From the NCBI GenBank assembly GCA_002497285.1, contig DANJ01000011.1, forward strand, positions 3,091-67,090: a stretch of DNA of 64,000 nt. The letters run 5' to 3'. The notes beneath the pieces were generated by a model that saw nothing but the letters and a program-made list of their open reading frames with translations, was not told the origin of the DNA and made no database searches. This DNA is from Candidatus Pacearchaeota archaeon UBA92 (GTDB lineage Archaea > Nanobdellota > Nanobdellia > Pacearchaeales > GW2011-AR1). The translations under genes and the position numbers were made by a program. Shown in pieces: positions 896-44,610 of the stretch (the first letter of the stretch is position 1; every line of letters begins with the position of its first letter).

Positions 896-949
896 TTTAG
901 CCCCTCACACTTAATATAGACCTGTTTTTTCTTTTTATATTCTTCGGTT

Positions 950-2164: not shown

Positions 2165-2184
2165 TTAAATCTTACTAAAATTAG

Positions 2185-31335: not shown

Positions 31336-31380
31336 GAATCCTCGCGGATTACATTTCTAAGAACAGTTTATAAAACTACC

Positions 31381-31389
31381 TATTAGGCA
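31381..31389. repeat. left 9-bp target-site duplication TATTAGGCA
   Basis: Identical 9-mer at 43829-43837, each abutting a terminal inverted repeat. Confidence 0.7.
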
Positions 31390-31406
31390 GGCTTTGTTTA
31401 ATAAGT
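31390..31406. repeat. left terminal inverted repeat GGCTTTGTTTAATAAGT
   Basis: Exact reverse complement of 43812-43828. Confidence 0.8.
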
Positions 31407-31466
31407 AGGGGTTGTTTAAATAATCCCTCCTTCCTAAGATATCTTCTAAAAATGAAGAAAGGAATC

Positions 31467-31946
31467 TTAGAAGGTATTATAGACCTTAATCGCTTTATTC
31501 AATTGAAATTCACAGTTGCCCCAATCAATATATTTACAAATATCCCTTGGATCAATAAATTTTCTTTCTAAAATTTCCCCGATTGCAGGGTCTTCGGTTT
31601 GATTATTAATTTTATCTACAAAAGCTGTATATCTTAATAAATAATGAATCTTTGATCCATCCCTTGGTATGACTTTTATGTAACCAACTCTTTTGATATT
31701 TTTTATTTTTAAATCTGCTTCTTCTTGTACTTCCCTTTTCAGAGTATCTTCAAAGGATTTATCTTCTTTTTCGGGTGTCCCTCCCGGAATTCCCCACATA
31801 CCATTATATTTAATCAAACAAACTTTCCCTTCTTTATCAAATATAAATGCATAAACTTGTGTTACATTATCCAAATTTTCAAAGTTTGTGTTATCATGCC
31901 ATTCATTATCTGAAATCCTTCCCTTAAAATCTACTCTAAATTTCAT
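31467..31946 (-). CDS. NUDIX hydrolase
   Basis: Nudix box GIPGGTPEKEDKSFEDTLKREVQEEADL. Confidence 0.85.
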   Translation of the reverse strand: MKFRVDFKGRISDNEWHDNTNFENLDNVTQVYAFIFDKEGKVCLIKYNGMWGIPGGTPEKEDKSFEDTLKREVQEEADLKIKNIKRVGYIKVIPRDGSKIHYLLRYTAFVDKINNQTEDPAIGEILERKFIDPRDICKYIDWGNCEFQLNKAIKVYNTF

Positions 31947-32027
31947 ATTAATAAATAACTTTTTAGCCTTAAAAGGTTTTCTTTTATAATTAAATAAATT
32001 TATAATGTTATATTTATTATTAAAAAA

Positions 32028-32972
32028 ATGAGATATGTGAGAAATTTAAATTCGATTAATAAAAATGATGTTGAAATAGCGGGTGGAAAGGGCGCTTCAT
32101 TAGGAGAGCTAATTAACTCTAATATAGAAGTACCTGGAGGATTTGTTATACTCTCAAATGCATTTGAAGAATTTATTAAAGAAACCGATACAACAATAGA
32201 AATTGACTCAGAATTGGATTCTATAAATCTAAAAGATATTAATAGCATAAATAGGGCTTCAGAAAGGATAAATTTTGCAATTGTTTCTAAGGATATCCCT
32301 AAAAAGATTAAAGATGAAATAATAAAATCTTATAATCAATTAAAATCAAAATATGTTGCTGTTAGGAGTTCAGCGACTTCAGAAGATGGCGCTAATTCAG
32401 CATGGGCAGGACAATTAGATACTTATCTTAATACTTCAAAAGAAAACCTAATAATGAATATTAAAAGATGTTGGGCCTCTCTGTTCACTCCAAGAGCATT
32501 AATATATCGTCTTGAAAAAAAATTAAAAAAAGAAAAAATATCTGTGGCTGTAGTTATTCAAAAAATGATAGATAGCAGTGAATCTGGAGTTGCATTTTCT
32601 GTCCACCCAATTACAAAAGACAAAAACCAATTAGTAATTGAGGCATGTTTTGGGTTAGGAGATGCTATAGTTTCTGGAGAGATCATCCCCGATAGTTATG
32701 TTTTAAATAAGAGTGACTGGAGAATTTTAGATATAAATATCAACAATAAAGTAAAAGGATTGTTTAAGGAAAAGAATGGTGAAAATAAATGGAAACAATT
32801 AAAGAAAAAGGGGGGAAATCAGGTTTTGACAAAAAAAGAAATTGTAGTATTGGGCAAATTAGTAAAAATGATTGAAGAGCATTATAAATTCCCGGTAGAT
32901 ATTGAATGGGCAAAAAGGAAGGATAAATTTTATATTCTTCAAAGTAGACCAATTACGACTTTATTGGATTAA
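32028..32972 (+). CDS. PEP synthase/PPDK N-terminal ATP-grasp (nucleotide-binding) domain, stand-alone
   Basis: GGKGASLGELINSNIEVPGGFVI, VAVRSSATSEDGANSAWAGQLDTYLN, VAVVIQKMIDSSESGVAFSVHP, DIEWAKRKDKFYILQSRPIT. Confidence 0.85.
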   Translation: MRYVRNLNSINKNDVEIAGGKGASLGELINSNIEVPGGFVILSNAFEEFIKETDTTIEIDSELDSINLKDINSINRASERINFAIVSKDIPKKIKDEIIKSYNQLKSKYVAVRSSATSEDGANSAWAGQLDTYLNTSKENLIMNIKRCWASLFTPRALIYRLEKKLKKEKISVAVVIQKMIDSSESGVAFSVHPITKDKNQLVIEACFGLGDAIVSGEIIPDSYVLNKSDWRILDININNKVKGLFKEKNGENKWKQLKKKGGNQVLTKKEIVVLGKLVKMIEEHYKFPVDIEWAKRKDKFYILQSRPITTLLD

Positions 32973-33002
32973 CTTTTTAAATCTGTTTGTGTTATCCTTG
33001 TT

Positions 33003-34082
33003 ATGAAATTAGAGATATTTAAAGCAGGAAAAATATTTAACCCAATTAAGGGAACAAAAAACAAACCAGTACTCCAACATAAAAAGATAAAGGTGACAGT
33101 TCCCGCAAGATTAAATACAATGTGTTTTGATTTAAAAACACTAACTAAGCCTAAAAAGAAATTTATTTATAATGCTGGGGAACTTGCTTTCTCAGTAAAT
33201 GTAAATACTTATGCAAAATTAATAATTACAAAAAATGATAATGGTTCTGTTTTGCTTTCTAAAAACACAAAAAGAAAATCGATAGTTAAACATGCAGCAT
33301 TAATGATGAAAAATGCTCTTAAAATAAATGATTTGTTTTTAATTGAAGCAAACAATGTATATGACTATCCTCACGCTGGTCTTGGATCTTCATCTTCATT
33401 AATTAGTGCAGTTTGTATAGCCATCAATGAGGCCTATGGTAAACCATTAAGCCCAAGACAATTAACACTATTTATTGCTCAAAATCATGGAGAAGAAATT
33501 GAATCAGATGATGAAAGATTAATTCATGTCCAGTGTAATGGTGGTTCTCCTTCTGTAGCCCTATATTATGGAGGTATGCAGATAATTGCAGGAGAATCAA
33601 ATATGATCTTTAGAGAGGAATTTCCTGAAGAATATACATTTGTTTTTGGAATACCTAAGATGTATAAAAAGTGTGATGCTCAATGCTTAATGGCAATCGA
33701 AAAAACTCAATTCCCAAAAATGCTAAAATCGAGTAAAGATTTCTCAAAAGAGATTGCTTGGAAAGTTTTACATGAACTTATTCCTTCAATAATGAATAAA
33801 GATATGAAATCTATCGGAGACATATTACAATATTATAGATTTAATACCGGGAGTTTAGTAATAGATTCAAGAACATGGAAAGGATTATATTCTTTAGTAA
33901 AATCATTGATGAAGTATAGAAATGATGCAACCCCCATAATCTCTGTTTCATCTTGTGGTCCTGCAATATATATTTTAACAAAAAATCCAAAGATGATAGA
34001 AAAAATTTTAAAAGATAAAAAAATGATTACATTCACAGCTAAACCAAATAATAAAGGTTATTCAATCTTATATAATTTTTAA
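33003..34082 (+). CDS. GHMP-kinase-superfamily enzyme, beta-RFAP-synthase-like
   Basis: P-loop-like PHAGLGSSSSLISAVCIAINEAYG. The N-terminal VTVPARLNTMCFDL resembles the PSRLH start of beta-ribofuranosylaminobenzene-5'-phosphate synthases rather than that of classical kinases. Confidence 0.55.
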   Translation: MKLEIFKAGKIFNPIKGTKNKPVLQHKKIKVTVPARLNTMCFDLKTLTKPKKKFIYNAGELAFSVNVNTYAKLIITKNDNGSVLLSKNTKRKSIVKHAALMMKNALKINDLFLIEANNVYDYPHAGLGSSSSLISAVCIAINEAYGKPLSPRQLTLFIAQNHGEEIESDDERLIHVQCNGGSPSVALYYGGMQIIAGESNMIFREEFPEEYTFVFGIPKMYKKCDAQCLMAIEKTQFPKMLKSSKDFSKEIAWKVLHELIPSIMNKDMKSIGDILQYYRFNTGSLVIDSRTWKGLYSLVKSLMKYRNDATPIISVSSCGPAIYILTKNPKMIEKILKDKKMITFTAKPNNKGYSILYNF

Positions 34083-35192
34083 TAATTCTTCGTAACTTTT
34101 AAGATATTCTGGATAAAAATAAATTGTATAAGTATAACCCTCCTCTCTTTTTATTGAGTGGATTCTAAATTTTATTTCGATATCTTTTGGGAGCCTTTTC
34201 TTTAAAATTATACAAACCATCGGCATAGAAGGGGTTTCAAGATATTTGATATCTTTTTCATTTAATCTTTTAATAAATTTATTTTTATTTGAGATAATTT
34301 TCATCGCTCTTTTCTTAAATCCTTTTTTGGATAAATATTCTGTATTTGCCCAAATAATTGCAGGCAATATTCCAGACCTTGATCCTATAAGTGTGTCGTC
34401 AAAAATTTTAACATATTCAGTATTACTACCAATATTATCTTGCAAACCCTTTCTACACAAAAAAATTCCTGAGGGGTAATAAAGGAAACCATATTTATGA
34501 TAATCAAAGGTTAATGATTTAACAAAAGAATTTCCAAAGTCTGAATATTTATTTTTATTTAGAAATGGGATAAAAAATCCTCCAACAGCAGCATCAAGGT
34601 GCAAAAAACATGGTTTTTTATACTCTTTGATAAATTCGGATATTGATTCTATATTGTCTATTATTCCAGTTGAAGTATGCCCTAAGGTTCCAACTATAAT
34701 TAAAGGAGATTCAATATTTTTTGTTGCTTCCTTAAGTTGAGTTTTATCAAGGGGTTTGTTCCAAAATTTAGCTTTTGTTTTTATTATTTTTAAATCAAGC
34801 AATCTTGCTGCTTTATCTAAAGAATAATGGCCCTCACTATGAGAAATAATAATGGGCCTGCCTTTCTTTTTAAGATATTCTCTTCCTATCCATAATGCCA
34901 TAATATTTCCTTCGGTTGAACCACTATTAATGTATCCATCAAGGTTAGAACCATGGAACCAATTAGAGATTTTTTTTATAACCTTATTCTCAAGTTCTCT
35001 ACAACTATCTTGAGAAAACTTCATCCTCGTAGTAGTGCCAATATTATTTGGGTTTAATTTTAATAATTGTTTTATTTCTTTCTTAAAATAATTTTGAGGT
35101 GTGGGAGGTTGAGGAATTCCGATTCTAAGTAAGGAAGTTTCTTTTTCTCTTTTTATTACCTTTTTTAATTTGTTTTTAATTTGTTTTATCAT
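34068..35192 (-). CDS. PLP-dependent group II amino-acid decarboxylase (MfnA-like)
   Basis: SGSTEGNIMALWIGREY, HLDAAVGGFFIPF, and SLTFDYHKYGFLYYPSGIFLCRK (PLP lysine in DxHK). Confidence 0.75.
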   Translation of the reverse strand: MIKQIKNKLKKVIKREKETSLLRIGIPQPPTPQNYFKKEIKQLLKLNPNNIGTTTRMKFSQDSCRELENKVIKKISNWFHGSNLDGYINSGSTEGNIMALWIGREYLKKKGRPIIISHSEGHYSLDKAARLLDLKIIKTKAKFWNKPLDKTQLKEATKNIESPLIIVGTLGHTSTGIIDNIESISEFIKEYKKPCFLHLDAAVGGFFIPFLNKNKYSDFGNSFVKSLTFDYHKYGFLYYPSGIFLCRKGLQDNIGSNTEYVKIFDDTLIGSRSGILPAIIWANTEYLSKKGFKKRAMKIISNKNKFIKRLNEKDIKYLETPSMPMVCIILKKRLPKDIEIKFRIHSIKREEGYTYTIYFYPEYLKSYEELLKII

Positions 35193-36748
35193 AGTCCTAA
35201 ACTTATATACTGAACACCTTTTTTACTTATTATAAAAAGAACAGGTATTGTTAAATCTTCTCTTTGTGTTTTTTTCAATAGATTAGATAATTTATCGATA
35301 TCATTCTCAAAGACTTTAGTATATTTTTTTGGAAAATCTCCCACTATTTCCCCCATTTCATATATTAAATTGTAGTCTGGAACATAATCTCTTGGCAGAA
35401 GTTTAAGTGATTTCCCTTCTTCCCTCATAACAAATGGTTCTTCAGGATTCTTTGATATTGTAATAATCACTTTATTCTTAAAATTATTTTTATCAATCAA
35501 AAAAGAACCATAATATAAAACGTCCTTTCTTGAGGGGCTTAACCTAACAATATATATTTTATTTGGTTTCTTATTTTTAATCATAAATTTTTTTATGTTA
35601 TTATAGTCTCTTGAAAATAAGTGATCTGTATTAATTATATCTCCCTCTTCATCTCTTATAGTTATGCTCCAAATCTCTTCTTTCTTTTTCATAAAATGAT
35701 TTGGATTAAATTCCGATGGATTCCTATATATTTTTACTGGTAACAATTTGTCTGGATATAAATATTTTAAAATTTTAATCCCATCCCATCTTGATAACAA
35801 CTTATTTTCTTTAAAGGTATCACTAACTGATTTATTAATTGTATATCTTGGTTTCCAAGAAACATATTTTTTTGCTTTATCAATACCATATATACGATTT
35901 CTTGATAAACTTATTATGTCTTCTTTTAAAAGGGAAGGTTTCTTATTTGATTCGTTATATTCTTTCTGTTGTTTTTGAGCAATTCTGAATAATTCTCTTA
36001 AAGTCGCAGATTTATCTATTCTTTTATCAAATATATTTGCAACCAGATTTAGATAATCTTTTTGTGATGTAAATCCAGAAGCGATATTAAAATCTTCATT
36101 TTTAATTTCTAAATTTTTAATAATTTTCATAATAAAATTTGATAAATCATTTTGATGAATAAAAGAAAAATTATTACTCCCATCACCAAACATTATAGCT
36201 TTATCTTTTTTTATTGCTTCAATAAATCTATTGAATTTATTTTTAAAATATAATCCAAATATAATTGGAAATCTAACTATAACAAAATCTATGTCCGACT
36301 TTTTTAAAATATTTTCTGCTTTTAATTTATAATTTCCATAGTAACTAGTAGGAATTTTGTTCGAATTTTCAAAGATAATTTTAGATTTATAATTTCCATA
36401 TACTGCCGATGATGAACAAAATATTATTCTAATATTTTTCTTTTTCTTTTTCAAATAACTAACTAAATTTTCCAATGTCTTATAATTAATTTTGGAAGAT
36501 TCTTCATTTAAAAATTCTGCTTTTCCTATAGTAAATATGATGTCAGAAATATTTTTTATTTTATCAAGTTTATTTAGATCTTCATTAATTATAAAATTAA
36601 TTTTTATTAATTGTTCATAACACTCCGGATTTTGAGGATATTTTTTATAATAAGTACCAATCAGCTCAAAATCATAATTGGTTAACGTTTCAGAAATAGA
36701 TTGAGCAACTTTACTAGATGCGCCAATAATGATGATTTTTCCTCTCAT
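35189..36748 (-). CDS. NAD-dependent epimerase/dehydratase (SDR) fused to an uncharacterised ~200-aa C-terminal domain
   Basis: KIIIIGASSKVAQS, CSSSAVYGNYK (S...YxxxK), VRFPIIFG. The C-terminal half has no motif I recognise. Confidence 0.6.
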   Translation of the reverse strand: MRGKIIIIGASSKVAQSISETLTNYDFELIGTYYKKYPQNPECYEQLIKINFIINEDLNKLDKIKNISDIIFTIGKAEFLNEESSKINYKTLENLVSYLKKKKKNIRIIFCSSSAVYGNYKSKIIFENSNKIPTSYYGNYKLKAENILKKSDIDFVIVRFPIIFGLYFKNKFNRFIEAIKKDKAIMFGDGSNNFSFIHQNDLSNFIMKIIKNLEIKNEDFNIASGFTSQKDYLNLVANIFDKRIDKSATLRELFRIAQKQQKEYNESNKKPSLLKEDIISLSRNRIYGIDKAKKYVSWKPRYTINKSVSDTFKENKLLSRWDGIKILKYLYPDKLLPVKIYRNPSEFNPNHFMKKKEEIWSITIRDEEGDIINTDHLFSRDYNNIKKFMIKNKKPNKIYIVRLSPSRKDVLYYGSFLIDKNNFKNKVIITISKNPEEPFVMREEGKSLKLLPRDYVPDYNLIYEMGEIVGDFPKKYTKVFENDIDKLSNLLKKTQREDLTIPVLFIISKKGVQYISLGL

Positions 36749-37836
36749 TTTCGTAGGTCGACAATATGTCTTAATTTGTGAGAGCTTGTTTTTGGAACCT
36801 CAATTTTATTTTGAAAGATAAATTCCTTCTTAGCGAAAATAAATGAAAGTTCTTTGATGATATCCTTTTCTTTATCTTTAAATTCAGATGGAAGAATAAA
36901 TTCAACATAATCTCTATTCTCTTTTGTTTTAAAATTAACAATAAATTCATTAGTATATTTTGATAAAGTATCTTCTATTTTTGTTTTTGATGTAAGCATT
37001 CCTTGCAATTTTATAAGGTCATCATCTCTTCCTGTAACTGAAAATTCACTTATTGAACCATCATCATTATATTTGACTTTTTCTAGAACATCTTTAGTAT
37101 TATATCTTATTATTTTTGTAGAACTATTATTTAAATCAGTTATTGCTAATTCTAAATTTTTATTTATCTCTACTGCCTCTACATATATCCCCTCATTAAT
37201 TACTTTTATTAATTTTGGATCTCCTTTTTTAGAAACTCCAAGGGCAGGACATTCTGTTAAACCAAAATGATTTACAACTTCAACACCCAAGTCTTTAAAT
37301 CGTGAAATATATGAATCTAATAACATTTCCCCTGCTACAAGAACTTTTTTTGGCATAATTTTCGGATTAATTTTATTTAAAACCTCAAGTAAACCAAGAG
37401 CATAGCTTGGAACTGAGAACCATACTGTTGGTTTCACCTTTAAAATAACTTCCATTATTTTTTCCTTGGGATATGTATTTGGAGCGCCTAATGGCAATAT
37501 TGATATGCCATCCAATAAACAAGCTCGTTCATACATACTGCCAGGAACATAATTTCCATATGCGAAAAGATTCAAAACAATATCTTTATTTGATACCCCC
37601 GATAGTTTTATCGATTTTCTTGTTCTGTTAATAAATCCTTCTACAGCTTTGTTAGAGTAAAAAACATAAAGAGCTTTTCCGGTTGATCCACTTGTAATTC
37701 TTAGTTCAAGAAAATTTTTAGGAACTATAAATGCCGATAGGTCTTTTTTCGTACTAATTTTAATCTTTTTCCAATCTTCAATAGATTTAATTTTATCTTC
37801 TCCAACTAAATCATTCATTTTTTTTATTATTTTCAT
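36745..37836 (-). CDS. adenylate-forming ligase, PaaK/CapK/coenzyme-F390-synthetase family
   Basis: TSGSTGKALYVFYS AMP-binding motif. The C-terminal SSHKLRHIVDLRK resembles the PaaK-type SGKxxRxxDxR ending. Confidence 0.65.
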   Translation of the reverse strand: MKIIKKMNDLVGEDKIKSIEDWKKIKISTKKDLSAFIVPKNFLELRITSGSTGKALYVFYSNKAVEGFINRTRKSIKLSGVSNKDIVLNLFAYGNYVPGSMYERACLLDGISILPLGAPNTYPKEKIMEVILKVKPTVWFSVPSYALGLLEVLNKINPKIMPKKVLVAGEMLLDSYISRFKDLGVEVVNHFGLTECPALGVSKKGDPKLIKVINEGIYVEAVEINKNLELAITDLNNSSTKIIRYNTKDVLEKVKYNDDGSISEFSVTGRDDDLIKLQGMLTSKTKIEDTLSKYTNEFIVNFKTKENRDYVEFILPSEFKDKEKDIIKELSFIFAKKEFIFQNKIEVPKTSSHKLRHIVDLRK

Positions 37837-37887
37837 AGTATTTATTTGGAAAGTATATTTTAAAAGCTTTCTAAACTTATTTTATTC

Positions 37888-38553
37888 ATGAATAAATCAA
37901 AAAATAATAAAGAAATTTGGAATAAGTTCTATAAAAAAAGTTCAAAGTATATATACTGACCGTCTGAAGAAATATTTACTTTTTCTGAAAAATATTTAGG
38001 AAACCTTAAGGGCAAAAAGGTTCTTGATATTGGGTGTGGGGCTGGAAGGCATTTATTGATGTTTGATTATAGGGGATGTATTACCTTTGGAATCGATAGT
38101 TCGAAAGAGGCTGTATCAACATCTAAAAAATTCTTGAAAAAGTGGAATGTTAATTCAGAAATAAGGTTGGCTAGTTCCACTAATATCCCCTATAATGATA
38201 ATTCATTTGATATTATTCTTCTTTGGGATATTTTTCATTACCTCTCAAAAAGAGATCAAGAAAAAACTATTGAAGAAATTATGCGAGTATCAAAAAATGG
38301 TGCATGGGTTATATTTTCACTTAGATCAAAAAATGATTCTAGATATAGGATAGGAAAAGAAATGAGAAAGAATACTTATTTACAAGATAAACCAGGAAAG
38401 AGAGATATTGTGATAGAATATTGGAGCAAAAAAGAAGCGGAAAGTTTTTTTAGATTAGATAATTTATTGATTGGAGAGAAAATTATTGCCCCCATTGGTA
38501 GATATAATGTAAAAAGTGCTCATTGGATTCTAGCTGGGAAAATTAACAAATAA
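37888..38553 (+). pseudogene. class I SAM-dependent methyltransferase interrupted by one in-frame TGA (37957-37959)
   Basis: ATG at 37888 is in frame with ORF 38056-38553. Motif I VLDIGCGAGRH (38020-38052) lies between the TGA and the first possible restart, so any restart product lacks the SAM-binding loop. Confidence 0.7.
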
Positions 38554-38587
38554 ATAACTTTAAAAATGTAACTTGGTATTTCATTTT

Positions 38588-39487
38588 ATGGAAATAAATA
38601 AAATATTGAAAAATATCTCCAGAGATGTAGCCAAGGTACAACACGAATCAGGCGTTTTATCACAATGGCCAATAAATTCAGTAGAGGCAATGTATTATTC
38701 TGGCCCTTTTTTAATCCCAGAAGTAGGGAAAAATTTAATGAGTTGGAAGAATGATCCAAAAAGTTTATTTGAAAAAGGATTGATGCCCGGAAAACTTTCA
38801 GGATTAATTTTTTATTTTTTAAATGAAAAGGCAAAAGAGATGATGGGAGAAGAGAATCATAAAAATCTATTAATGGGAATTTTATCAAAAATCATGCTAT
38901 TTAAAAAAGAAAATTATTTTACTGATTATACCTCCAAATCATGGATGCCTGAATGGGATTTGGATGCTAATCCAAAAAAAGTAGATGTAAAAAAATTAGT
39001 ATTTTTACTCGATAACTTAACAGAAATGATTAATCCTATTTTTAGATCTAATGGAGTACAATTGTTTTTTGATGATAACAATGTTTATCGTTATTATTAT
39101 AGATTAGAATTAAACAAGAAAATAATTATTGTATCTCCAAAACAAGGTATGAAAATTGATTTTTTTGAACATATTATTGAACCTGAAAATCTTGATCATT
39201 CTCAAGTATTTATTGAAAACGGGGGGGAAATTATCGAAGGAGATTCGAATATTTTATTTGAAGAAGTAAAAAATAAAATTAAAAAATTAAAAAATTCTAA
39301 AGAGTTCAATAGGGAATATGTTATTAACCAAATTTTTGATGCTTTTGATTTTGATATTCCAGAAGCACAAAAAGGATTTCTTAAAACACCCTTTCCTGAA
39401 GAAATAGTTAAATTTTATATGAAAACATGTGAGATTCCAGAAGATAAACTTAGTCAAGGAATATATCATATTTTAGGAGGTTCATAA
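38588..39487 (+). CDS. hypothetical protein (candidate substrate-binding partner of the split dikinase)
   Basis: ~300-aa ORF (first ATG at 38588, TTG at 38573). Its stop abuts the start of the swivel-domain gene (TAAATG). No motif recognised. Confidence 0.5.
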   Translation: MEINKILKNISRDVAKVQHESGVLSQWPINSVEAMYYSGPFLIPEVGKNLMSWKNDPKSLFEKGLMPGKLSGLIFYFLNEKAKEMMGEENHKNLLMGILSKIMLFKKENYFTDYTSKSWMPEWDLDANPKKVDVKKLVFLLDNLTEMINPIFRSNGVQLFFDDNNVYRYYYRLELNKKIIIVSPKQGMKIDFFEHIIEPENLDHSQVFIENGGEIIEGDSNILFEEVKNKIKKLKNSKEFNREYVINQIFDAFDFDIPEAQKGFLKTPFPEEIVKFYMKTCEIPEDKLSQGIYHILGGS

Positions 39488-39808
39488 ATGATACTCAAAG
39501 GCATTCCTGCTTCTGAAGGAGAATTTGAAGGAACTCTCAAGATTTTCTCAAAAGAGAAAGAATTTAATAAAAATGATATTCTTGTAGCTATCTCAACCTC
39601 TCCCGAAATGAGTGCAGAGATGTTAAATGCTGGAGCAGTTCTTACAGAGTATGGAGGATTGTTATCTCATGCTTCAATATTTTGCAGGGAGATTAAAAAA
39701 CCATGTGTTGTTGGAATAAAAGATTTATTAAACGTAGTTTCTGATGGTATGAAAGCCAAAATTAATGGTAAAAATGGTATTGTTGAAATTAGCCCAAATG
39801 AAGAATAA
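39488..39808 (+). CDS. PEP-utilising enzyme mobile (swivelling phosphohistidine) domain, stand-alone
   Basis: ILVAISTSPEMSAEMLNAGAVLTEYGGLLSHASIFCREIKKPCVVGI, with the catalytic His in GGLLSHAS. Confidence 0.8.
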   Translation: MILKGIPASEGEFEGTLKIFSKEKEFNKNDILVAISTSPEMSAEMLNAGAVLTEYGGLLSHASIFCREIKKPCVVGIKDLLNVVSDGMKAKINGKNGIVEISPNEE

Positions 39809-40853
39809 AAAGTGGTATTCAAGACTTTTAAAAAGAGTGAACTTATCAACTACATATGAAATATTTAATCTCTTTAAAACTTCGAAATTTGTTGTATTGA
39901 AACAAGAAGAATTTAAAAATCATTTCTATAGAGAGATAGCCTTTATACTGGGCCCGTATGTTTTATGTTTTGCAAAGAATAAGACTATGAAAAATGAATT
40001 AGTTTTAAATTGGACAAGTAAAAATCCCCAAATCCCTTTTGGAAAAATTTTCAAAAACAAAAATACTGAAAGAAAACTGATTGAAAAGACGATCAATAGT
40101 AGAAAATATATTGTTTCAGGAGAAATTAATGCTACTATTGAAGAAAAATTTAGAGGTTTAGAGATTCTTAAGGTTTCGGCCTTTTGCGGAAATGTCATGA
40201 ATTCTAAGGAGGATATTAATATTTCAAAAAAATTTATTTCAAAAAATAAATCCGATTTATATTTATTTCCTGAATCATATCCTTTCTCAAGGATAGTTTT
40301 TAATTCAAAAGGATTTCCGGAAGGCACAATATTTGGCAGGTATGGTAACCATGGACCTGAAACATACTTTATGAAAAAAAATCCGGTTCAAATAAGCAAG
40401 TCTACAGCTTTTGCTGATGAAAAAAAAATAATGAAAAAGGGAAGATTTCCAAAAATAATTGATCACAAAGGAATAAAAGTGGCAGTAATAATCTGTTATG
40501 ATTTATTAAATCCAAGAATCTCCCATTATTTGGCTAATAAAGATATAGACATTGTTTTTATTCCTTCCATGATTCCTTCCAATGATGTAGAAAAATGGAA
40601 AAAATTTCTTTATGTTAGGGGGCAGGAAATACAATGTCCGTTAATTCTAGCAAGCAATAAAGACAAAAGGAATATTTGTATCCCAAAAATATTATATTAT
40701 GATCCTATTGAAGAAAAAGTTAATGAGTATAATAAACCTCAAGTTTTTGAAATTCCATTTGGAAAATTGAAGATAAAAGAATCCCCAAGAGTACATTGGA
40801 GCTGGTTATTGAAGAATAAGGTGTTTGGTCCTTTTTCAAAAGATTTTGATTAA
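39798..40853 (+). CDS. carbon-nitrogen hydrolase (nitrilase superfamily)-like protein
   Basis: LYLFPESYPF (Glu motif) and GIKVAVIICYDLLNP (Cys motif). Alternative starts are at 39765 and 39774. Confidence 0.5.
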   Translation: MKNKKWYSRLLKRVNLSTTYEIFNLFKTSKFVVLKQEEFKNHFYREIAFILGPYVLCFAKNKTMKNELVLNWTSKNPQIPFGKIFKNKNTERKLIEKTINSRKYIVSGEINATIEEKFRGLEILKVSAFCGNVMNSKEDINISKKFISKNKSDLYLFPESYPFSRIVFNSKGFPEGTIFGRYGNHGPETYFMKKNPVQISKSTAFADEKKIMKKGRFPKIIDHKGIKVAVIICYDLLNPRISHYLANKDIDIVFIPSMIPSNDVEKWKKFLYVRGQEIQCPLILASNKDKRNICIPKILYYDPIEEKVNEYNKPQVFEIPFGKLKIKESPRVHWSWLLKNKVFGPFSKDFD

Positions 40854-41476
40854 TTTTTTGCTTTATCTATGAACTTTTTAACTTTTAAGAGGTCTCTAAA
40901 ACCCATGTTGTTTCTAAGGGAAGATTCAGCATCTACAGCATATGGTTTAACTTTACTAATGGCTCCTTTAACATTTGATTCATTCAAACCTCCTGCCAAG
41001 ATTATGGGTATATTGTTATTTTTTACAATTTTTTTACTTAGGTTCCAATCATGAACTTTACCCGTTCCTCCGAGGTGATGTCCAAGTTTTGAATCAAGTA
41101 AAATATAATCTGCCTCACAATATAACTCTATCTTTGATTCATCATTTTTATTAGTAATATGCACAACAGGTATGATTTTTATATCACAATTTTTTGATAA
41201 ATATTCTACATTTGTTTTAGTAGGATTCAACAATTGAATTCCCCAGGGAGAAATATATTCTATCAAATTCAATAATTTAATTGGATCATCTTCAATAGTT
41301 AAAATAATAAATTTTCCTTTATTATTATGGGATATGATCTTTTTAGCTTCGGTTGGATTTAAACTTAAATTAGTCTCAGGAATCTCTATAAGTAATCCTA
41401 AAAAATCAGCCCCATATTCAATAGCCTTTTTTGCTTCATTGCTAGAATGTATTCCACAAATTTTTACTTTTACCAT
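40850..41476 (-). CDS. trpF: phosphoribosylanthranilate isomerase (TrpF) family
   Basis: MVKVKICGIHSSNEAKKAIEYGADFLGLL, GGTGKVHDWNL, PIILAGGLNESNV, AVDAESSLR. The start is taken at the internal Met; the ORF-track extension to 41665 is non-homologous. Confidence 0.8.
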   Translation of the reverse strand: MVKVKICGIHSSNEAKKAIEYGADFLGLLIEIPETNLSLNPTEAKKIISHNNKGKFIILTIEDDPIKLLNLIEYISPWGIQLLNPTKTNVEYLSKNCDIKIIPVVHITNKNDESKIELYCEADYILLDSKLGHHLGGTGKVHDWNLSKKIVKNNNIPIILAGGLNESNVKGAISKVKPYAVDAESSLRNNMGFRDLLKVKKFIDKAKN

Positions 41477-41553
41477 AATCTCAATACGAAAATCAAGTTT
41501 TTTAATATTTGTAAAATGCAAAGATTTATATCTTGTAACTATGGAGTAGCAAT

Positions 41554-42123
41554 ATGGCAAAAAGAATAGAATTTGTTTGTACAGCAAATAATGGGAAAAG
41601 TCCGGTAGCATTAGCTGTAGCCAGAAATTATGTTGGAAAAAATGAAAACTATGCATTGTCTTCAACAGGAACCATGGTTGATGTGATTACAAGGTCTGAT
41701 GGCAATCAACTTTCTAAATACTTAAACCAATTTTTAAGTGATGCCTATGAGCGAAATATTTTGTCTACAAAAGAAGTTGAGAATTTAGAAAAGAATCCTA
41801 GAGGAATATTAGAAAAATTTCTCAGAAACGAAAGAACAAATAGGGACAGATATCTTACTGGAATAGGTTTAGAATTTGTAGATTATCCTAATCAAACACA
41901 TGCAATTGAGGGTGGAGGGATAATTGCTTGTATTGGAGATTCAAATTTAAAGAGAGTTAGGGAGATATATAACTGTTCAGATCATTCACCAAGAATCATA
42001 AATCTAATGGGTGAAGAATATCCTGATGTAAGTAATCAATGGGTGTTAACTTATGATGAGTTTAGAGATGTAGCAAGAGTGGTGAGAGAAAATACGATTA
42101 GATTGATTGAGTTAGATAAATAA
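41554..42123 (+). CDS. low-molecular-weight phosphatase-like protein with variant P-loop (CX5K)
   Basis: IEFVCTANNGKSPVA compared with the canonical VCxGNxCRS. Confidence 0.4.
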   Translation: MAKRIEFVCTANNGKSPVALAVARNYVGKNENYALSSTGTMVDVITRSDGNQLSKYLNQFLSDAYERNILSTKEVENLEKNPRGILEKFLRNERTNRDRYLTGIGLEFVDYPNQTHAIEGGGIIACIGDSNLKRVREIYNCSDHSPRIINLMGEEYPDVSNQWVLTYDEFRDVARVVRENTIRLIELDK

Positions 42124-42165
42124 TTTTCTATTTTTTCAAAATGTAAGTCTGCTTTCAAACATCTA

Positions 42166-42354
42166 TTACTTTTTGGTTTTAGGTTCCAAATCCCAATATG
42201 CACTTTTACAATTAGGGCATATTCTCGGTTTTTCTTTTAACTCGCCCTCAAGTTGCGATAATTCAACACGAGGTATCCACTCGTGACCGCACCTTAAACA
42301 TCTGAAAGCATTAACCTCCTTCTTAATTCTATACTTATCTTTAGTATCTTTCAT
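42166..42354 (-). CDS. small zinc-ribbon protein
   Basis: CLRCGHEW...CPNCKS. Confidence 0.5.
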   Translation of the reverse strand: MKDTKDKYRIKKEVNAFRCLRCGHEWIPRVELSQLEGELKEKPRICPNCKSAYWDLEPKTKK

Positions 42355-42529
42355 AGTTTATTTAAGTTTAACTCCTTTATATAATTATCGTTTATAAAAA
42401 CTATGTTAATATTAGTTAATTTTATTATAATGTGGGATATAATTGTATTTTTATCGTCGGTTATTGTATTTACTTATAAAAGTAAGAAATAGAAAGGTTT
42501 ATATAGTAGTTATTACTTATATAAGTAAG

Positions 42530-43792
42530 ATGATAAAAGTAAATAATCAAATACAAACAACGGACATAAGAAAACTTAACCGAGAAGAACGAGGTAAGTT
42601 AATCTTTGAGAATGGAAGGATTAGACAGAAAGATAACTATTGGGTTGTTGATTCTCAAACTTCATTTAAAGCATATAAAGTAAGTTTTAATGGACACAAA
42701 CCAAAATGCACTTGCCCAGATTGTCAAATAAGAAAAGGCAAATGCAAACATATTTTCGCAGTAGAACTTTATATTAAAAGACAAATAGATGAAGAAGGTA
42801 AGATAACAGAAACAAGAGGAGTAAACATAAAACAATATTCTCAAAAATGGTCTGCTTATAATAAATCTCAAACAAACGAAAAGTTAATTTTTATGAAATT
42901 GTTAAAAGATTTATGTGAGAATGTAGAACAGCCAGAATATAAATTTGGTCGTCCAACTTTGCCTTTTAGTGATATGCTCTTTGGCTCTGTAATGAAAGTT
43001 TATACAGGATTTTCATTAAGAAGATTTATGTCTGATATGAAAATTGCCCACGATTACGGATTAGTTGATAATGTGCCTTGTTATTCTTCTCTATCTAATT
43101 TTATGAATAAAGAAGAAGTTAAGTCAATATTGGAAAATCTAATAACAATTAGTTCTCTACCTCTTAAAGAAATTGAAAAAGATTTTGCAGTTGATAGTTC
43201 AGGATTTTCAACTTCAAGATATGCTCGTTGGTTTGATTACAAATGGGGGAAAGAAAGAAAGTATAAAGTTTGGTTAAAAGCACATTTAATTTCAGGAGTT
43301 AAAACTAATGTTATTACAGGAGTTAAGATAACAGAAGGACAGGAAAACGACAGCCCACAATTAAAAGAATTAGTTAAGAAAACGGCAGAGAACTTTGGAA
43401 TTTCAGAAGTAAGCGGAGATAAGGCATACAACAGCCGAGAGAATCTTAAAGTTATTGAAGAAGTTGGTGGAATTCCTTATATTCCTTTCAAAAAGAATGT
43501 TACAGGAAAAAGAGGTGGTTGTTCAATTTGGGGTAAGATGTATCATTATTTTATGTATAAACACGATGAATTTTTAGAACACTATCATAAAAGGTCTAAT
43601 TCAGAAACAATTTTTCATATGATTAAAACAAAATTCAGAGGAGATATTAAAAGCAAAAAGCAGACCGCACAATTTAACGAACTTCTGATTAAAGTTTTAT
43701 GTCATAATGTTTGTGTTGTAATTCAAGAAATAAACGAATTGGGGGTAAAAGCAGAATTTAATCTTGAACAGACAAGAGAAATTTCTGTTTAA
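42530..43792 (+). CDS. DDE transposase (IS4/IS5 superfamily-like) with N-terminal SWIM zinc finger
   Basis: SWIM motif CTCPDCQIRKGKCKHIFAVELY. Candidate DDE residues are in FAVDSSGFS, VSGDKAYNS and RSNSETIFHMIKTKF. The start is taken at MIKVNN. Confidence 0.8.
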   Translation: MIKVNNQIQTTDIRKLNREERGKLIFENGRIRQKDNYWVVDSQTSFKAYKVSFNGHKPKCTCPDCQIRKGKCKHIFAVELYIKRQIDEEGKITETRGVNIKQYSQKWSAYNKSQTNEKLIFMKLLKDLCENVEQPEYKFGRPTLPFSDMLFGSVMKVYTGFSLRRFMSDMKIAHDYGLVDNVPCYSSLSNFMNKEEVKSILENLITISSLPLKEIEKDFAVDSSGFSTSRYARWFDYKWGKERKYKVWLKAHLISGVKTNVITGVKITEGQENDSPQLKELVKKTAENFGISEVSGDKAYNSRENLKVIEEVGGIPYIPFKKNVTGKRGGCSIWGKMYHYFMYKHDEFLEHYHKRSNSETIFHMIKTKFRGDIKSKKQTAQFNELLIKVLCHNVCVVIQEINELGVKAEFNLEQTREISV

Positions 43793-43811
43793 AAAGTATG
43801 GACTGATTAGG

Positions 43812-43828
43812 ACTTATTAAACAAAGCC
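43812..43828. repeat. right terminal inverted repeat ACTTATTAAACAAAGCC
   Basis: Exact reverse complement of 31390-31406. Confidence 0.8.
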
Positions 43829-43837
43829 TATTAGGCA
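43829..43837. repeat. right 9-bp target-site duplication TATTAGGCA (contains the uppP stop codon)
   Basis: Identical to 31381-31389. The uppP TAA is at 43833-43831. Confidence 0.7.
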
Positions 43838-44610
43838 ATACTCAAATAAATCCCAATACTTGCAGCCAATAACAAACAATAAAGTCCAAACCACATAAAA
43901 CTTTTCCTATTTACAAGAATATAATTAAAAATGAGGTGTATAGCTATAATTCCTACAATAAAGCTAGCCAATGCCGCCCAAATCAAATCAGGAGGCAGAG
44001 TATTATTCCCTATGGTGATTAAATTTGCTCCAAAAACCACAGGGATTGAAAGTAAAAATGAAAATTTCATCGCCTCTTTTTCATTTAAGCCAAGCATAAT
44101 TCCAGAGGATATTGTTGACCCGCTTCTTGATATTCCGGGAATAATTGATAAAGCTTGAGCAACCCCAATAAAAAAGGCCCCTCTAAAACCAAGTTTTTCC
44201 TGTTTAACCTTTCCTGGAACACTCGCGATAAGCAAAAACATACCTGTAAGTGCAAACCCTGAAGCTATAATCCCAAGATTAGATAGAACACTGTCAAAAT
44301 AAGATTTAGCAAAAAATCCAAAAAGCGCTGTAGGCAAAGAAGCAATTATAAGTAAAATGCCCATTCTTCCTTTCTCACTCCTAAATTTTCCCCTAAGCAA
44401 TTCTTCAATGATATCAACAATATCTTTTCCAAAATAAACGAAAACAGCCATGAGTGTTCCGAAATGTAAAGCAACATCGAAGATTAATCCAACTTTGTAA
44501 TCGAGTAATCTTTCAACTAAAACTAAATGTCCTGAACTTGAAATAGGCAACCATTCAGTAGATCCCTGTACGATAGCTAAAATGATAGCTGAAAAAAGTT
44601 CGTTTACCAT
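43831..44610 (-). CDS. uppP: undecaprenyl-diphosphate phosphatase (BacA/UppP)
   Basis: GSTEWLPISSSGHL and PGISRSGSTI motifs; polytopic membrane protein. Confidence 0.9.
   Translation of the reverse strand: MVNELFSAIILAIVQGSTEWLPISSSGHLVLVERLLDYKVGLIFDVALHFGTLMAVFVYFGKDIVDIIEELLRGKFRSEKGRMGILLIIASLPTALFGFFAKSYFDSVLSNLGIIASGFALTGMFLLIASVPGKVKQEKLGFRGAFFIGVAQALSIIPGISRSGSTISSGIMLGLNEKEAMKFSFLLSIPVVFGANLITIGNNTLPPDLIWAALASFIVGIIAIHLIFNYILVNRKSFMWFGLYCLLLAASIGIYLSIA

Follow-up and report, generated by a model that had tools for sequence, protein, structure and literature searches.

What does a tiny symbiotic archaeon carry between the ends of a transposon: a single biosynthetic pathway, or enzymes that have nothing to do with one another? 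We addressed this question in a 64,000-nucleotide stretch of a Candidatus Pacearchaeota genome (the window), where a preliminary description had viewed positions 31467-42123 as transposon cargo encoding a self-contained small-molecule pathway. Our analysis leans, by a modest preponderance, toward the view that the passengers jointly encode a self-contained biosynthetic pathway whose product is a small molecule derived from ribose 5-phosphate. That the genes belong together is well supported: about ten of them are found together, though in varying order, in at least six separate lineages from two domains, and purifying selection acts on them.

Transposon ends and insertion sites

Positions 31390-43828 are a 12,439-bp IS903-like (IS903-group, IS5-family) unit transposon. 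The idea of transposon cargo is borne out by perfect 17-bp terminal inverted repeats (TIRs), a 9-bp target-site duplication (TSD), and several insertion sites. The ends and backbone of the element are as follows.

31381..31389, unstranded: left 9-bp TSD, TATTAGGCA; the same 9-mer abuts both element ends
31390..31406, plus strand: left TIR, GGCTTTGTTTAATAAGT, an exact 17-mer
42166..42354, minus strand: small Zn-ribbon open reading frame (ORF), 62 aa, with weak Zn-ribbon Pfam matches
42527..43792, plus strand: IS5-family DDE transposase with an N-terminal SWIM zinc finger, 421 aa (PF01609, E 5e-22; PF04434), start corrected to 42527
43812..43828, minus strand: right TIR, exact reverse complement of the left TIR
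43829..43837, unstranded: right 9-bp TSD, TATTAGGCA, a direct repeat of the left copy

The 17-mer occurs only twice in the window, the two copies being inverted relative to each other, and the transposase is single-copy there, scoring 134.6 bits against the NCBIfam model NF033579 (transpos_IS5_2; cutoff 140). The GC content is 0.281 in the element and 0.355 in the remainder of the window, with values of 0.337-0.371 for equal-sized windows elsewhere. A 12.5-kb block shares 89.9% nucleotide identity with L012/L071, and this homology stops exactly at the TIRs, the left TIR being the point where homology with L012 breaks off. The L012/L071 copy is flanked by a separate TSD (ACGTATTAG), and a copy in a third lineage (L067 and L074) by yet another (GATAGATTA). 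Counting these two sites in other archaeal genomes, each bearing a distinct 9-bp duplication, the element has inserted at at least three different sites.

The transposase is 88% identical to the L012 copy and 67% identical to that of L095, where a 3.9-kb sister element has identical TIRs, its own TSD (TACAGAAAG), and a homolog of the Zn-ribbon ORF adjoining the transposase. This ORF (dN/dS 0.03 vs L012) is part of the transposon backbone. The cargo of the L095 element is a restriction-modification pair, consisting of a DNA m5C methylase and an HNH endonuclease.

Cargo genes and their conservation

Eleven cargo genes had been claimed; we counted 12. The domains previously named are all present by Pfam, although the LMWPc match is weak and below cutoff.

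31467..31946, minus strand: NUDIX hydrolase, 159 aa (PF00293, E 6e-13; dN/dS 0.16 vs L012)
32028..32972, plus strand: stand-alone ATP-grasp protein (PPDK_N), 314 aa (PF01326, E 5e-92; dN/dS 0.11)
33003..34082, plus strand: GHMP-superfamily protein of a distinct COG1907-like family, 359 aa (PF00288, GHMP_kinases_N; dN/dS 0.09)
34068..35192, minus strand: group II PLP-dependent decarboxylase, 374 aa (PF00282, Pyridoxal_deC; dN/dS 0.12)
35189..36748, minus strand: extended SDR (aa 1-~310) fused to a predicted ATP-grasp-fold domain (aa ~320-519) (PF01370, E 2e-18; dN/dS 0.24)
36745..37836, minus strand: PaaK/CapK-type adenylate-forming ligase, 363 aa (PF00501, AMP-binding; dN/dS 0.09)
37888..38553, plus strand: class I SAM methyltransferase pseudogene (called ORF 38056-38553), in-frame TGA at 37957-37959
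38588..39487, plus strand: orphan protein, 299 aa (ORF 38573-39487; dN/dS 0.10)
39488..39808, plus strand: stand-alone phosphohistidine swivel domain, 106 aa (PF00391, E 3e-20; dN/dS 0.22)
39765..40853, plus strand: nitrilase-superfamily (CN_hydrolase) protein with a ~130-aa N-terminal extension, 362 aa (PF00795, 26.7 bits, cutoff 23.2; dN/dS 0.07)
40850..41476, minus strand: TrpF-like isomerase (PRAI), 208 aa (PF00697, E 2e-20; dN/dS 0.28), start corrected to 41476
41554..42123, plus strand: degenerate LMW-phosphatase-like protein, 189 aa (LMWPc, 18.4 bits, under the 23.2 cutoff)

Ten of the 12 genes are under purifying selection (dN/dS 0.07-0.28), and the other two are decaying. The methyltransferase domain reported earlier is present, but its gene is a pseudogene. 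Specifically, codon 37957-37959 is TGA in the window and TGG in L012 and L013, and three-frame translation recovers the SAM motif VLDIGCGAG after the stop and upstream of the called start. The L012 gene carries a different nonsense codon, and the gene is missing from L014, L064, and L066. Similarly, the LMW-phosphatase likeness holds as a weak match, but the protein is degenerate: Lys replaces the catalytic Arg in its P-loop (CTANNGKS) and the DP acid motif is absent, unlike in the canonical bacterial orthologs. This gene is frame-disrupted in L012 and L013.

The complete gene set was found in L012, L013, L067, and L071. With tblastn, L014 has 10 of the 12 genes, which are the core itself (NUDIX, ATP-grasp, GHMP-like, PLP decarboxylase, SDR-ATP-grasp fusion, PaaK-like ligase, orphan, swivel, nitrilase-family, and TrpF-like). 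Comparison of gene neighborhoods revealed conserved subsets in DPANN archaea and CPR bacteria alike, and a core of about ten genes recurs, reordered and at 35-66% identity, in CPR bacteria. L066 has nine cargo genes by tblastn, to which Pfam gene calls add LMWPc and a His_Phos_1 phosphatase in place of NUDIX. In L064, tblastn detects seven, and NUDIX, LMWPc, and a short-chain (adh_short) SDR come in addition from Pfam gene calls; it keeps the orphan and swivel genes, and no PPDK_N gene was found within 10 kb, which, like the changed SDR type, weighs against the pathway reading proposed here. Because the L066 cluster adjoins mraZ/rsmH/PBP/Mur and the L064 cluster adjoins uvrA/uvrC, their hosts are bacterial. 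Gene fusions that tie GHMP to NUDIX (P0022) and the orphan to the swivel domain (P0086) also speak for a single pathway.

We found no transporter, regulator, or resistance gene that could point to what the product does. Since none of the cargo genes attains an NCBIfam equivalog cutoff, all substrates are assigned by inference; the preliminary assignments to MfnA, beta-RFAP synthase, PaaK, and TrpF fall far below the curated cutoffs at that level.

Proposed pathway and its rivals

We propose seven steps, listed in decreasing confidence. In the first, the GHMP-like enzyme would ribosylate an acceptor from PRPP, rather than using ATP, like ForT and RFAP synthase. A profile search assigned it to no sugar-kinase or mevalonate-kinase model among the NCBIfam HMMs; beta-RFAP synthase models rank first, above homoserine kinase, yet score far under cutoff (53 vs 328 bits; 47.5 vs 113.5). 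Profile-versus-PDB comparison places the family equally close to homoserine kinase (E 1e-6) and ForT (E 8e-3). Two residues that are invariant in the family, R36 and H124, and one that is nearly so, D43, line up with ForT Arg19, His99, and Asp28, in N-terminal and P-loop alignments that are each nonsignificant on their own, while homoserine kinases lack the equivalent Arg and His. ForT and RFAP synthase use such Arg/Asp/His residues for PRPP (PMC8183095, PMC6787355). The conserved residues make the protein a candidate PRPP-dependent ribosyl synthase.

In the second step, provided that the first creates an N-glycosidic bond, the TrpF-like enzyme would open ribosylamine 5-phosphate to 1-amino-1-deoxyribulose 5-phosphate (Amadori rearrangement). 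The protein aligns end-to-end with Thermotoga maritima TrpF (E 1.6e-22) and scores at most 112.6 bits against NCBIfam TrpF models (cutoff 215). Of the T. maritima enzyme's features, Cys7, Asp126, and the phosphate loops are retained, but Leu stands in place of Arg36, which we take to bind the carboxylate of anthranilate. A role as a putative phosphoribosyl-amine isomerase is plausible. Because ForT and RFAP synthase form C-glycosides, a TrpF-type rearrangement cannot act on their products, and we know of no N-glycoside-forming activity in their superfamily.

The SDR would then, as the third step, reduce the ketone to a ribityl-type chain. With PRPP-site residues and the TrpF Cys and Asp kept, the earlier logic of ribosyl transfer, TrpF, and reductase remains plausible. 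Its aromatic-amine part finds no support: Arg36 is replaced, and the decarboxylase is equidistant from Ser-, Tyr/Asp-, and His-decarboxylases in the PDB (E 1e-22 to 1e-26). The latter enzyme, which carries the DYHK lysine motif and scores about 168 bits against HisDC and MfnA models (cutoffs about 300), may supply or trim an amino-acid-derived amine in the fourth step.

In the fifth, C-N bonds would be made by the PaaK-like ligase through adenylation and by the SDR-fused ATP-grasp through an acyl-phosphate, with the nitrilase-family enzyme delivering ammonia or cleaving an amide. The ligase scores about 74 bits against PaaK models (cutoff 700), and phenylacetate-CoA ligases are nearest to it in the PDB (E about 1e-17). 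The SDR C-terminal domain, ~200 residues with no Pfam assignment and only 12 clusters among 1.84e9 representative proteins, is predicted to be a cryptic second ATP-grasp fold. Its AF2 model (pLDDT 91.6) matched the Rph ATP-binding domain, Ddl, PurD, PurK, CPS, and HpeI in Foldseek with probability 1.0 and modest TM scores of 0.40-0.56. The candidate CN_hydrolase triad of Glu (FPES), Lys (K-S-T-x-F-A-x-E-K), and Cys (ICYD) is kept in four orthologs. In the sixth step, a three-piece dikinase of the PEP-synthase/Rph type may phosphorylate an intermediate, and in the last, NUDIX (His-phosphatase or LMWPc in bacterial versions) may remove phosphate or nucleotidyl groups as the pathway finishes.

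Alternatively, and with distinctly lower probability, the product could be nucleotide-like, such as a C- or N-nucleoside 5'-phosphate analogue serving as an antimetabolite or signal, with the ribose ring closed. The GHMP-like enzyme would form the glycosidic bond from PRPP, other enzymes would build or tailor the "base," and NUDIX and phosphatases would serve maturation or self-protection, as in tubercidin or formycin biosynthesis. This is consistent with the GHMP+NUDIX fusion (P0022) and with ForT and RFAP synthase, the solved relatives, making C-ribosides (PMC8183095, PMC6787355). Furthermore, more distant members of the GHMP family, at 30-39% identity and from about 50 species, lie in a nucleotide-centered cassette with Ham1/ITPase-like (38 loci), P-loop NMP-kinase-like, nucleoside deoxyribosyltransferase-like, NUDIX, and methyltransferase neighbors, and also turn up in BGC-like loci in actinomycetes and the B. 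cereus group. Yet window-type clusters lack the Ham1, P-loop kinase, and PrnB-like partners, except that L064 has a P-loop kinase, and TrpF would need a non-Amadori role or a side intermediate. The TrpF-like gene is present in all window-type loci of sufficient length with catalytic residues intact and the dN/dS noted above, which speaks for ring opening as a step of the pathway.

We consider it unlikely that the genes decorate a surface glycan or capsule, with a sugar phosphorylated by the GHMP protein, modified by an NDP-sugar-type SDR, and amidated by the CapK-like ligase and decarboxylase. A dikinase resembling Campylobacter Cj1418, a glutamine kinase, might in addition phosphorylate or phosphoramidate the sugar. 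The SDR does match Epimerase, RmlD_sub_bind, and GDP_Man_Dehyd, marking the extended epimerase/dehydratase family; capsule loci contain PaaK/CapK-type ligases, NUDIX enzymes hydrolyze NDP-sugars, and the decarboxylase's nearest solved relative is a serine decarboxylase, which makes ethanolamine. Still, the element and orthologous clusters contain no glycosyltransferase, sugar-1-phosphate nucleotidyltransferase, flippase, or polymerase, and their neighborhoods vary, none being glycan loci. In L064 the extended SDR gives way to a classical adh_short reductase, the GHMP protein matches no sugar-kinase model, and the TrpF-like enzyme is left unexplained.

Even less probable is catabolism or scavenging of an aromatic or nitrile/amide compound, in which a phenol-type dikinase resembling HpeHI or PpsAB traps the substrate, a CoA thioester is formed by the PaaK-type ligase, and a nitrile or amide is hydrolyzed by the nitrilase. 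Two-component dikinases already characterized do initiate aromatic catabolism (PMC12167813), and the ligase's PaaK relatives and the nitrilase-family triad fit. Against this, ring-cleavage, beta-oxidation, and thioesterase genes are absent, and the three or four ATP-consuming activation steps, PRPP-type enzyme, and TrpF point to anabolism; the orphan acceptor domain also differs from that of Rph/HpeH. Furthermore, the ultra-small DPANN/CPR hosts have little catabolic capacity. Finally, a chance collection of unrelated genes between transposon ends, which the two decaying genes and the alternating gene orientation might suggest, deserves almost no credence, being already contradicted by purifying selection on all ten genes and by the same ten genes, in different order, in bacterial clusters without a transposase, and disfavored by the stop/start overlaps joining PaaK-SDR-decarboxylase and orphan-swivel-hydrolase.

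Dikinase pieces and their known counterparts

Returning to the ribose 5-phosphate pathway, we infer that ATP-grasp, orphan, and swivel make up one split dikinase in three pieces. Among PDB entries, the ATP-grasp subunit comes closest to PEP synthases and to the rifampin phosphotransferase of Listeria (E 1e-57 to 1e-62). The orphan had no matches in Pfam, NCBIfam, PDB sequences, or PADLOC. Structure prediction, which gave the SDR C-terminal half a fold, was confident for the orphan as well (AF2, pLDDT 90.6) but found no matching fold in the PDB or BFVD. Its gene is invariably directly upstream of the swivel gene, and in one case the two are fused (P0086); only because of this adjacency and single fusion do we presume that it is the acceptor-binding subunit.

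Split dikinases are an established subfamily that includes HpeHI, CreHI, and PpsAB (PMC12167813). The swivel sequence GGLLSHASIFCR agrees with the catalytic-His motif known from PEP synthase, Rph, and HpeH, while the orphan bears no resemblance to the Rph/HpeH substrate domain and may represent a new kind of acceptor domain.

Structure and relatives of the element

A 12.5-kb block (window 31376-43852) is common to the window and to L012, a contig from a related Woesearchaeota MAG, at 89.9% nucleotide identity, and neither of its flanks is shared between the two. We located the ends of the element from these homology breakpoints; they had escaped a repeat search with default settings (seed 11, minimum length 18). 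The element starts with GGCTTTGTTTAATAAGT (31390-31406, + strand) and its other end is the exact reverse complement (43812-43828, - strand), which gives a perfect pair of 17-bp terminal inverted repeats. The same ends occur in L012, in two further contigs with copies (L071 and L074), and in a sister element on L095. Directly outside them lies a 9-bp target duplication that differs at each insertion: TATTAGGCA in the window (31381-31389 and 43829-43837), ACGTATTAG in L012, TACAGAAAG in L095, and GATAGATTA in a third lineage, represented by L067 (left end) and L074 (right end), with about 80% identical cargo. The uninterrupted target site of the window insertion would be expected to read ...CTACCTATTAGGCA joined straight to ATACTCAAAT..., and no such empty site turned up in the sequences covered. 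The flanking genes encode TFIIE-alpha, AlaRS, and UppP/BacA. The AlaRS beside the insertion site (29261-31039, + strand) has tRNA-synt_2c and tRNA_SAD domains and is only 592 aa long, which is short compared with typical AlaRS.

No further copies of the 17-mer end, internal ones included, were found in the window, which has a single transposase gene; we therefore treat the element as a unit transposon and not as an insertion sequence beside a gene cluster. The transposase carries a SWIM finger at its N-terminus, matches DDE_Tnp_1 (PF01609, E 5e-22), and scores just below the cutoff of the IS5-family model NF033579 (transpos_IS5_2; E 4.5e-39, 134.6 bits versus 140). GC content is 0.281 in the element versus 0.355 in the rest of the window. 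Judged by sequence features, it is essentially certain that window 31390-43828 is a transposon, and the inverted repeats, the 9-bp duplications at independent insertions, and the IS5-type transposase bear out the preliminary description, in which the genes between the ends had been called transposon cargo. That description counted eleven genes where we count twelve, and our ORF listing and Pfam/NCBIfam scans recovered every domain that it named.

Cargo genes and Zn-ribbon ORF of the element (window coordinates, strand, assignment from Pfam/NCBIfam unless stated otherwise)
31467-31946, -, NUDIX
32028-32972, +, PPDK_N ATP-grasp (PF01326, E 5e-92)
33003-34082, +, GHMP
34068-35192, -, group II PLP decarboxylase
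35189-36748, -, extended SDR with ~200 unassigned C-terminal residues
36745-37836, -, PaaK-like AMP-binding ligase
38056-38553, +, methyltransferase
38573-39487, +, ~300-aa ORF without a match
39488-39808, +, PEP-utilizers swivel (PF00391, E 3e-20)
39765-40853, +, CN_hydrolase
40850-41476, -, PRAI (PF00697)
41554-42123, +, LMWPc (sub-threshold match, Pfam)
42166-42354, -, Zn-ribbon ORF, 62 aa, between cargo and transposase

The sister element on L095 (IMGVR_UViG_3300022860_000148, 128-4052), a contig from a viral collection and classed as viral, is 3,925 bp long. Its transposase is 67% identical to that of the window and it has the same small Zn-ribbon ORF, whereas its cargo is a type II restriction-modification pair, consisting of a C-5 cytosine (m5C) DNA methylase and an HNH_2 endonuclease. 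Because the Zn-ribbon ORF is conserved in both L012 (dN/dS 0.03) and L095, its product probably assists or regulates transposition. Among viral contigs, a transposase search returned only L095 again and a search for the biosynthetic pathway found none; most single 17-mer matches there are presumably chance. The restriction-modification cargo prompted us to consider a defense role, which was set aside when PADLOC gave nothing meaningful for ten cargo proteins (weak generic-domain matches only, best E 5e-6, 24 bits). A transposon family with exchangeable cargo, whether a biosynthetic cluster or a restriction-modification pair, should be a useful marker of gene flow in uncultivated archaea.

Conservation and decay of the cargo

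Searches with tblastn recovered the whole gene set in L012 and in three other contigs (L013, L067, and L071). In more distant loci most of the set persists, with a rearranged order and amino-acid identities of 35-66%: 10 of the 12 genes in L014 (a MAG labelled "bacterium"), nine in L066, where the cluster adjoins mraZ-rsmH-PBP-Mur, and seven in L064, a 985-kb contig that includes uvrA and uvrC. To these, Pfam gene calls contribute, in L066, an LMWPc gene and a His_Phos_1 phosphatase at the NUDIX position and, in L064, NUDIX, LMWPc, short-chain (adh_short) SDR, and P-loop kinase genes. The core comprises the GHMP protein, the PLP decarboxylase, the SDR, the PaaK-like ligase, the orphan protein (the 299-aa product of 38588-39487, + strand), the swivel, the CN-hydrolase-like and TrpF-like proteins, an ATP-grasp, and a phosphohydrolase. 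When the window is compared with L012, dN/dS is 0.07-0.28 for these ten core genes. Furthermore, cluster GC lies below that of the flanks in every host except L013 (in L014, 0.356 versus 0.455), which fits repeated horizontal acquisition. The family is rare: at a 90% identity threshold, 5.8 billion sequences yield just 23 clusters of the orphan protein, and the C-terminal domain of the SDR fusion has 12 representative clusters among 1.84 billion, for which an exhaustive HMMER scan was needed (a word-indexed search gave only two fragments). Taken together, the gene-neighborhood co-occurrence proposed earlier as a check is present, with most of the set recurring in distant bacterial loci, and the cargo is very probably one conserved pathway. 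Our literature search found no earlier description of the cluster, which does not prove absence, nor one of TrpF in DPANN or CPR.

Some loci depart from this pattern. The L064 cluster (6196-9363 and 16364-17488) has a classical adh_short reductase instead of the extended SDR fusion, adds a U32 peptidase along with its P-loop (AAA_17) kinase, and adjoins a radical-SAM/HHH protein and a SAM synthetase; no PPDK_N gene was found within 10 kb of it. On a 516-kb contig, L065 (9695-11106) holds a decayed remnant in which nothing is left but the swivel, a 263-aa orphan protein, and part of the PLP decarboxylase, next to mannoside-phosphorylase and PMM genes.

Two cargo genes are themselves decaying. 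The SAM methyltransferase of the preliminary description is present as a domain and not as a working gene: in the window (37888-38553), TGG has become TGA at 37957-37959 (codon 24). An independent nonsense mutation places a stop at codon 74 in L012 (14886-15572), whereas L013 has an intact copy of the gene and the bacterial clusters have none. In the LMWPc-like gene, an Arg-to-Lys change in the P-loop (CX5R) is fixed in all archaeal copies, and the frame is disrupted in L012 (~18550-19110, 7-nt gap) and in L013 (~11390-11950, 1-nt gap and lost ATG), while the bacterial copies in L064 and L066 have the canonical form. For neither gene are the dN/dS values reliable, since stop codons and indels that break the frame corrupt the alignments; we took these values solely as a sign of disruption, which direct alignment confirmed.

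Enzymes of the cargo and a candidate pathway

Judging by profile scores, the cargo enzymes belong to known superfamilies and none is an equivalog-level member of a characterized family: none of the twelve genes reached an NCBIfam equivalog cutoff, the PaaK-like ligase, for example, scoring 74 bits versus 700. The GHMP protein (359 aa) represents a family of its own, present in about 50 GTDB species. Its best NCBIfam matches are beta-RFAP synthase models, with homoserine kinase behind, and not the ordinary sugar or mevalonate kinases that had been named as the refuting outcome. A search of its family profile against the PDB gave homoserine kinase at E 1e-6 and ForT/RFAP synthase at E 6e-3 to 8e-3, all weak matches that cannot separate a kinase from a PRPP synthase; comparison at the level of residues is informative. 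Across 39 sequences, R36 (the Arg of a PsRL motif) and H124 (at the head of a GLGSS loop) never vary and at least 90% retain D43, and in local alignments, themselves weak, these align with ForT Arg19, His99, and Asp28, respectively. Homoserine kinases lack the equivalent Arg and His. In ForT, Arg19 and His99 bind the pyrophosphate of PRPP (PMC8183095); in RFAP synthase, D19 is essential and His98 has been modelled on PRPP (PMC6787355). Because R36, D43, and H124 match PRPP-site or essential residues of these enzymes, we favor a PRPP-type donor over ATP.

The likeness to ForT, PyfQ, and beta-RFAP synthase, which are PRPP-dependent C-glycoside synthases, thus extends from the GHMP fold motifs and best NCBIfam matches to the conserved strand-1 Arg, the following Asp, and the His heading the phosphate loop. 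It does not extend to family membership: the protein falls far under the family cutoffs (53.3 bits versus 328 for NF040726, 47.5 versus 113.5 for TIGR00144), scores only ~18 bits against the ForT sequence, and forms a family apart, marked by an invariant AQNHGEE motif. The beta-RFAP-synthase-like label it first received therefore stands for its matches and PRPP-site residues and fails at the cutoffs. Its pairing with a TrpF-like enzyme suggests that the product is an N-glycoside rather than a C-glycoside, although we know of no GHMP enzyme that performs N-ribosylation via PRPP.

The wider GHMP family (L006, L008, L010, and L015-L063, found with family alignment A1) shares 30-39% identity with the window protein and occupies another cassette, itself strongly conserved. 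Partners there include a PrnB/IDO-like heme protein (~31 loci; fused to the GHMP protein in L023), a methyltransferase of ~220 aa that is sometimes fused (~46 loci), a Ham1/ITPase-like protein (38 loci), a GreA-C-like 155-aa protein (25 loci), and P-loop AAA_17/18 kinases. Further recurring genes encode a U32 peptidase, an aminotransferase, a nucleoside deoxyribosyltransferase-like protein, and an Asp/Glu racemase. Hosts span CPR, DPANN, the B. cereus group, and actinomycetes, and our literature search for this cassette found nothing. One such locus, L062 (methyltransferase-fused GHMP, U32 peptidase, racemase, and P-loop kinase), belongs to the same Woesearchaeota MAG as L012 (CAZROF01), so that the two GHMP systems coexist in one genome.

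The TrpF-like protein scores 73.7 bits against PF00697 (cutoff 22.7) and resembles phosphoribosylanthranilate isomerase along its full length: its alignment with T. maritima TrpF (E 1.6e-22) runs from one end to the other and includes conserved phosphate-binding loops. Its KICG and LLDS motifs, conserved in four orthologs, align with the catalytic Cys7 and Asp126. The PRAI fold and catalytic pair of the TrpF first proposed are thus retained, whereas its place in tryptophan biosynthesis is not: the protein falls under all NCBIfam TrpF equivalog cutoffs (best score, 112.6 bits versus 215), and all orthologs have Leu at the position of Arg36. We take Arg36 of the T. maritima enzyme to bind the anthranilate carboxylate, in which case the substrate would be a ribosylamine 5-phosphate other than PRA. 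As noted from the sequence at the outset, no other trp genes occur in the element, nor do any in clusters L012-L014, L064, and L066.

The PLP decarboxylase had been called MfnA-like, in a pathway making or modifying an aromatic amine. There is no support for the word aromatic: plant serine decarboxylase, MfnA (Tyr/Asp), and histidine decarboxylase are equally distant from the enzyme, which scores 167.5 bits versus 299.4 for MfnA (TIGR03812) and 168.4 versus 305 for histidine decarboxylase (NF002748). The CN-hydrolase-like protein keeps candidate catalytic Glu, Lys, and Cys residues and, beside an adenylating ligase, could deliver ammonia or cleave an amide. Ammonia delivery by a nitrilase-type unit has a precedent in glutamine-dependent NAD synthetase.

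Three proteins may form a split dikinase. The PPDK_N protein is nearest to PEP synthases and rifampin phosphotransferase, and the swivel has the catalytic His motif (GGLLSHASIFCR versus GGxT[S/C]HAA...). The orphan gene always adjoins the swivel gene and is fused with it in protein P0086; this position suggests that its product is the acceptor-binding subunit. Structure prediction, advised in the preliminary description for this protein and for the C-terminal half of the SDR fusion, yielded confident models of both. That of the orphan protein (pLDDT 90.6) has no fold match in the PDB or BFVD (best PDB E 0.17, TM ~0.2, with Rph structures in the library) and, with no sequence match either, an Rph/HpeH-type substrate domain was rejected. 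The C-terminal domain of the SDR fusion (pLDDT 91.6) is modelled as a previously unannotated ATP-grasp, with best fold matches to the ATP-binding domain of rifampin phosphotransferase and then to Ddl, PurD, PurK, CPS, and HpeI, which would give the cluster two ATP-grasp modules. NCBIfam NF004520 (PRK05865), a mycobacterial 854-aa "sugar epimerase family protein," matches both the SDR and the swivel, so that a single-chain version linking these domains exists elsewhere.

From these parts, we propose a self-contained, mobile biosynthetic pathway that would open with PRPP-dependent ribosylation, after which a TrpF-type Amadori step would open the sugar for reduction. Decarboxylation, ATP-dependent C-N ligation of two kinds, and a single dikinase phosphorylation would then build up the product, and phosphohydrolases would complete it. 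We hold this specific order tentatively, at somewhat less than an even chance. Its weak points are that known ForT/RFAP-type enzymes make C-glycosides, which TrpF cannot open; that the GHMP-ForT similarity, as judged from alignments, is weak; and that L064 has no PPDK_N gene nearby. In its broadest form, the proposal is that of a cross-domain "pathway transposon" that carries a novel metabolite pathway from one ultra-small symbiont to another, in DPANN archaea as well as CPR bacteria, with a PRPP-dependent N-ribosylating GHMP member, a three-piece dikinase with a new-fold acceptor domain, and an open-chain (ribulosyl or ribityl) amine phosphate, cofactor-like or an antimetabolite, as its product. 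That whole is possible, if rather unlikely.

Alternatively, the product could be a closed-ring nucleotide analogue; the nucleotide-centered context of the wider GHMP family speaks for this reading, which we nevertheless consider unlikely. The surface-glycan decoration cassette offered as an alternative in the preliminary description is less likely again, because neither the element nor the orthologous clusters contain genes for a glycosyltransferase, a nucleotidyltransferase, or export. Scavenging of an aromatic or nitrile compound is very improbable, and a chance assortment of genes, contradicted by the conservation and selection documented here, is scarcely credible.

Significance and comparison with known systems

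DPANN archaea and CPR bacteria are thought to be nearly without biosynthetic capacity and dependent on hosts, which makes a ten-enzyme, ATP-expensive pathway unexpected in them. The pathway is under purifying selection, has moved between two domains, and in one lineage is packaged in a transposon with textbook ends. This suggests that its product matters for symbiosis, be it in host interaction, in competition, or as a missing cofactor. For biochemistry, the cargo offers several leads: the GHMP/ForT superfamily gains a new branch that keeps PRPP-site residues, a TrpF paralog occurs away from tryptophan synthesis, the acceptor protein of a dikinase in three pieces matches no known fold, and an SDR is fused to a cryptic ATP-grasp.

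In the biosynthesis of the nucleoside antibiotics tubercidin and formycin, a PRPP-dependent scaffold enzyme is combined with a reductase and a Nudix or phosphatase finishing step. The cargo follows a similar logic with its PRPP-type enzyme, reductase, and Nudix or phosphatase for the last step, but it has no recognizable base-forming genes, includes a nitrilase-family enzyme along with a split dikinase and a TrpF-like enzyme, and resides in DPANN and CPR instead of actinomycetes.

Two-component dikinases such as HpeHI, CreHI, and PpsAB are an established subfamily (PMC12167813). With these and with single-chain rifampin phosphotransferase, the cargo shares a PPDK_N ATP-grasp, a phosphohistidine swivel with its His motif, and the expected mechanism (ATP to His-PP to His-P to acceptor); with the former, it also shares a separate ATP-grasp subunit. 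It differs in having three pieces rather than two and a second ATP-grasp, that of the SDR fusion, in the cluster. In neither sequence nor fold does the orphan protein detectably resemble the Rph/HpeH substrate-binding domain or the PEP/pyruvate TIM barrel.

As for the vehicle, the closest known systems are the IS903 group of the IS5 family and IS-derived unit transposons that carry passenger genes ("transporter IS"). The element resembles them in its DDE_Tnp_1 transposase, whose best NCBIfam model is IS5-family, in the single transposase gene adjoining one end, and in its 9-bp target duplication. Its short inverted repeats begin GGCTTTGTT..AATAA, and we take these ends to be closely similar to the IS903 end and the 9-bp duplication to be as in IS903. 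It differs in that ~11 kb with 12 passenger genes separate the left end from the transposase, that a conserved Zn-ribbon ORF is added, that the transposase has an N-terminal SWIM finger, that the hosts are DPANN archaea, and that its family swaps cargo. By its structure, the element appears to work like an IS903-type transposon that is unusual in size, passengers, Zn-ribbon ORF, and hosts. We rate it as a unit transposon carrying a biosynthetic gene cluster.
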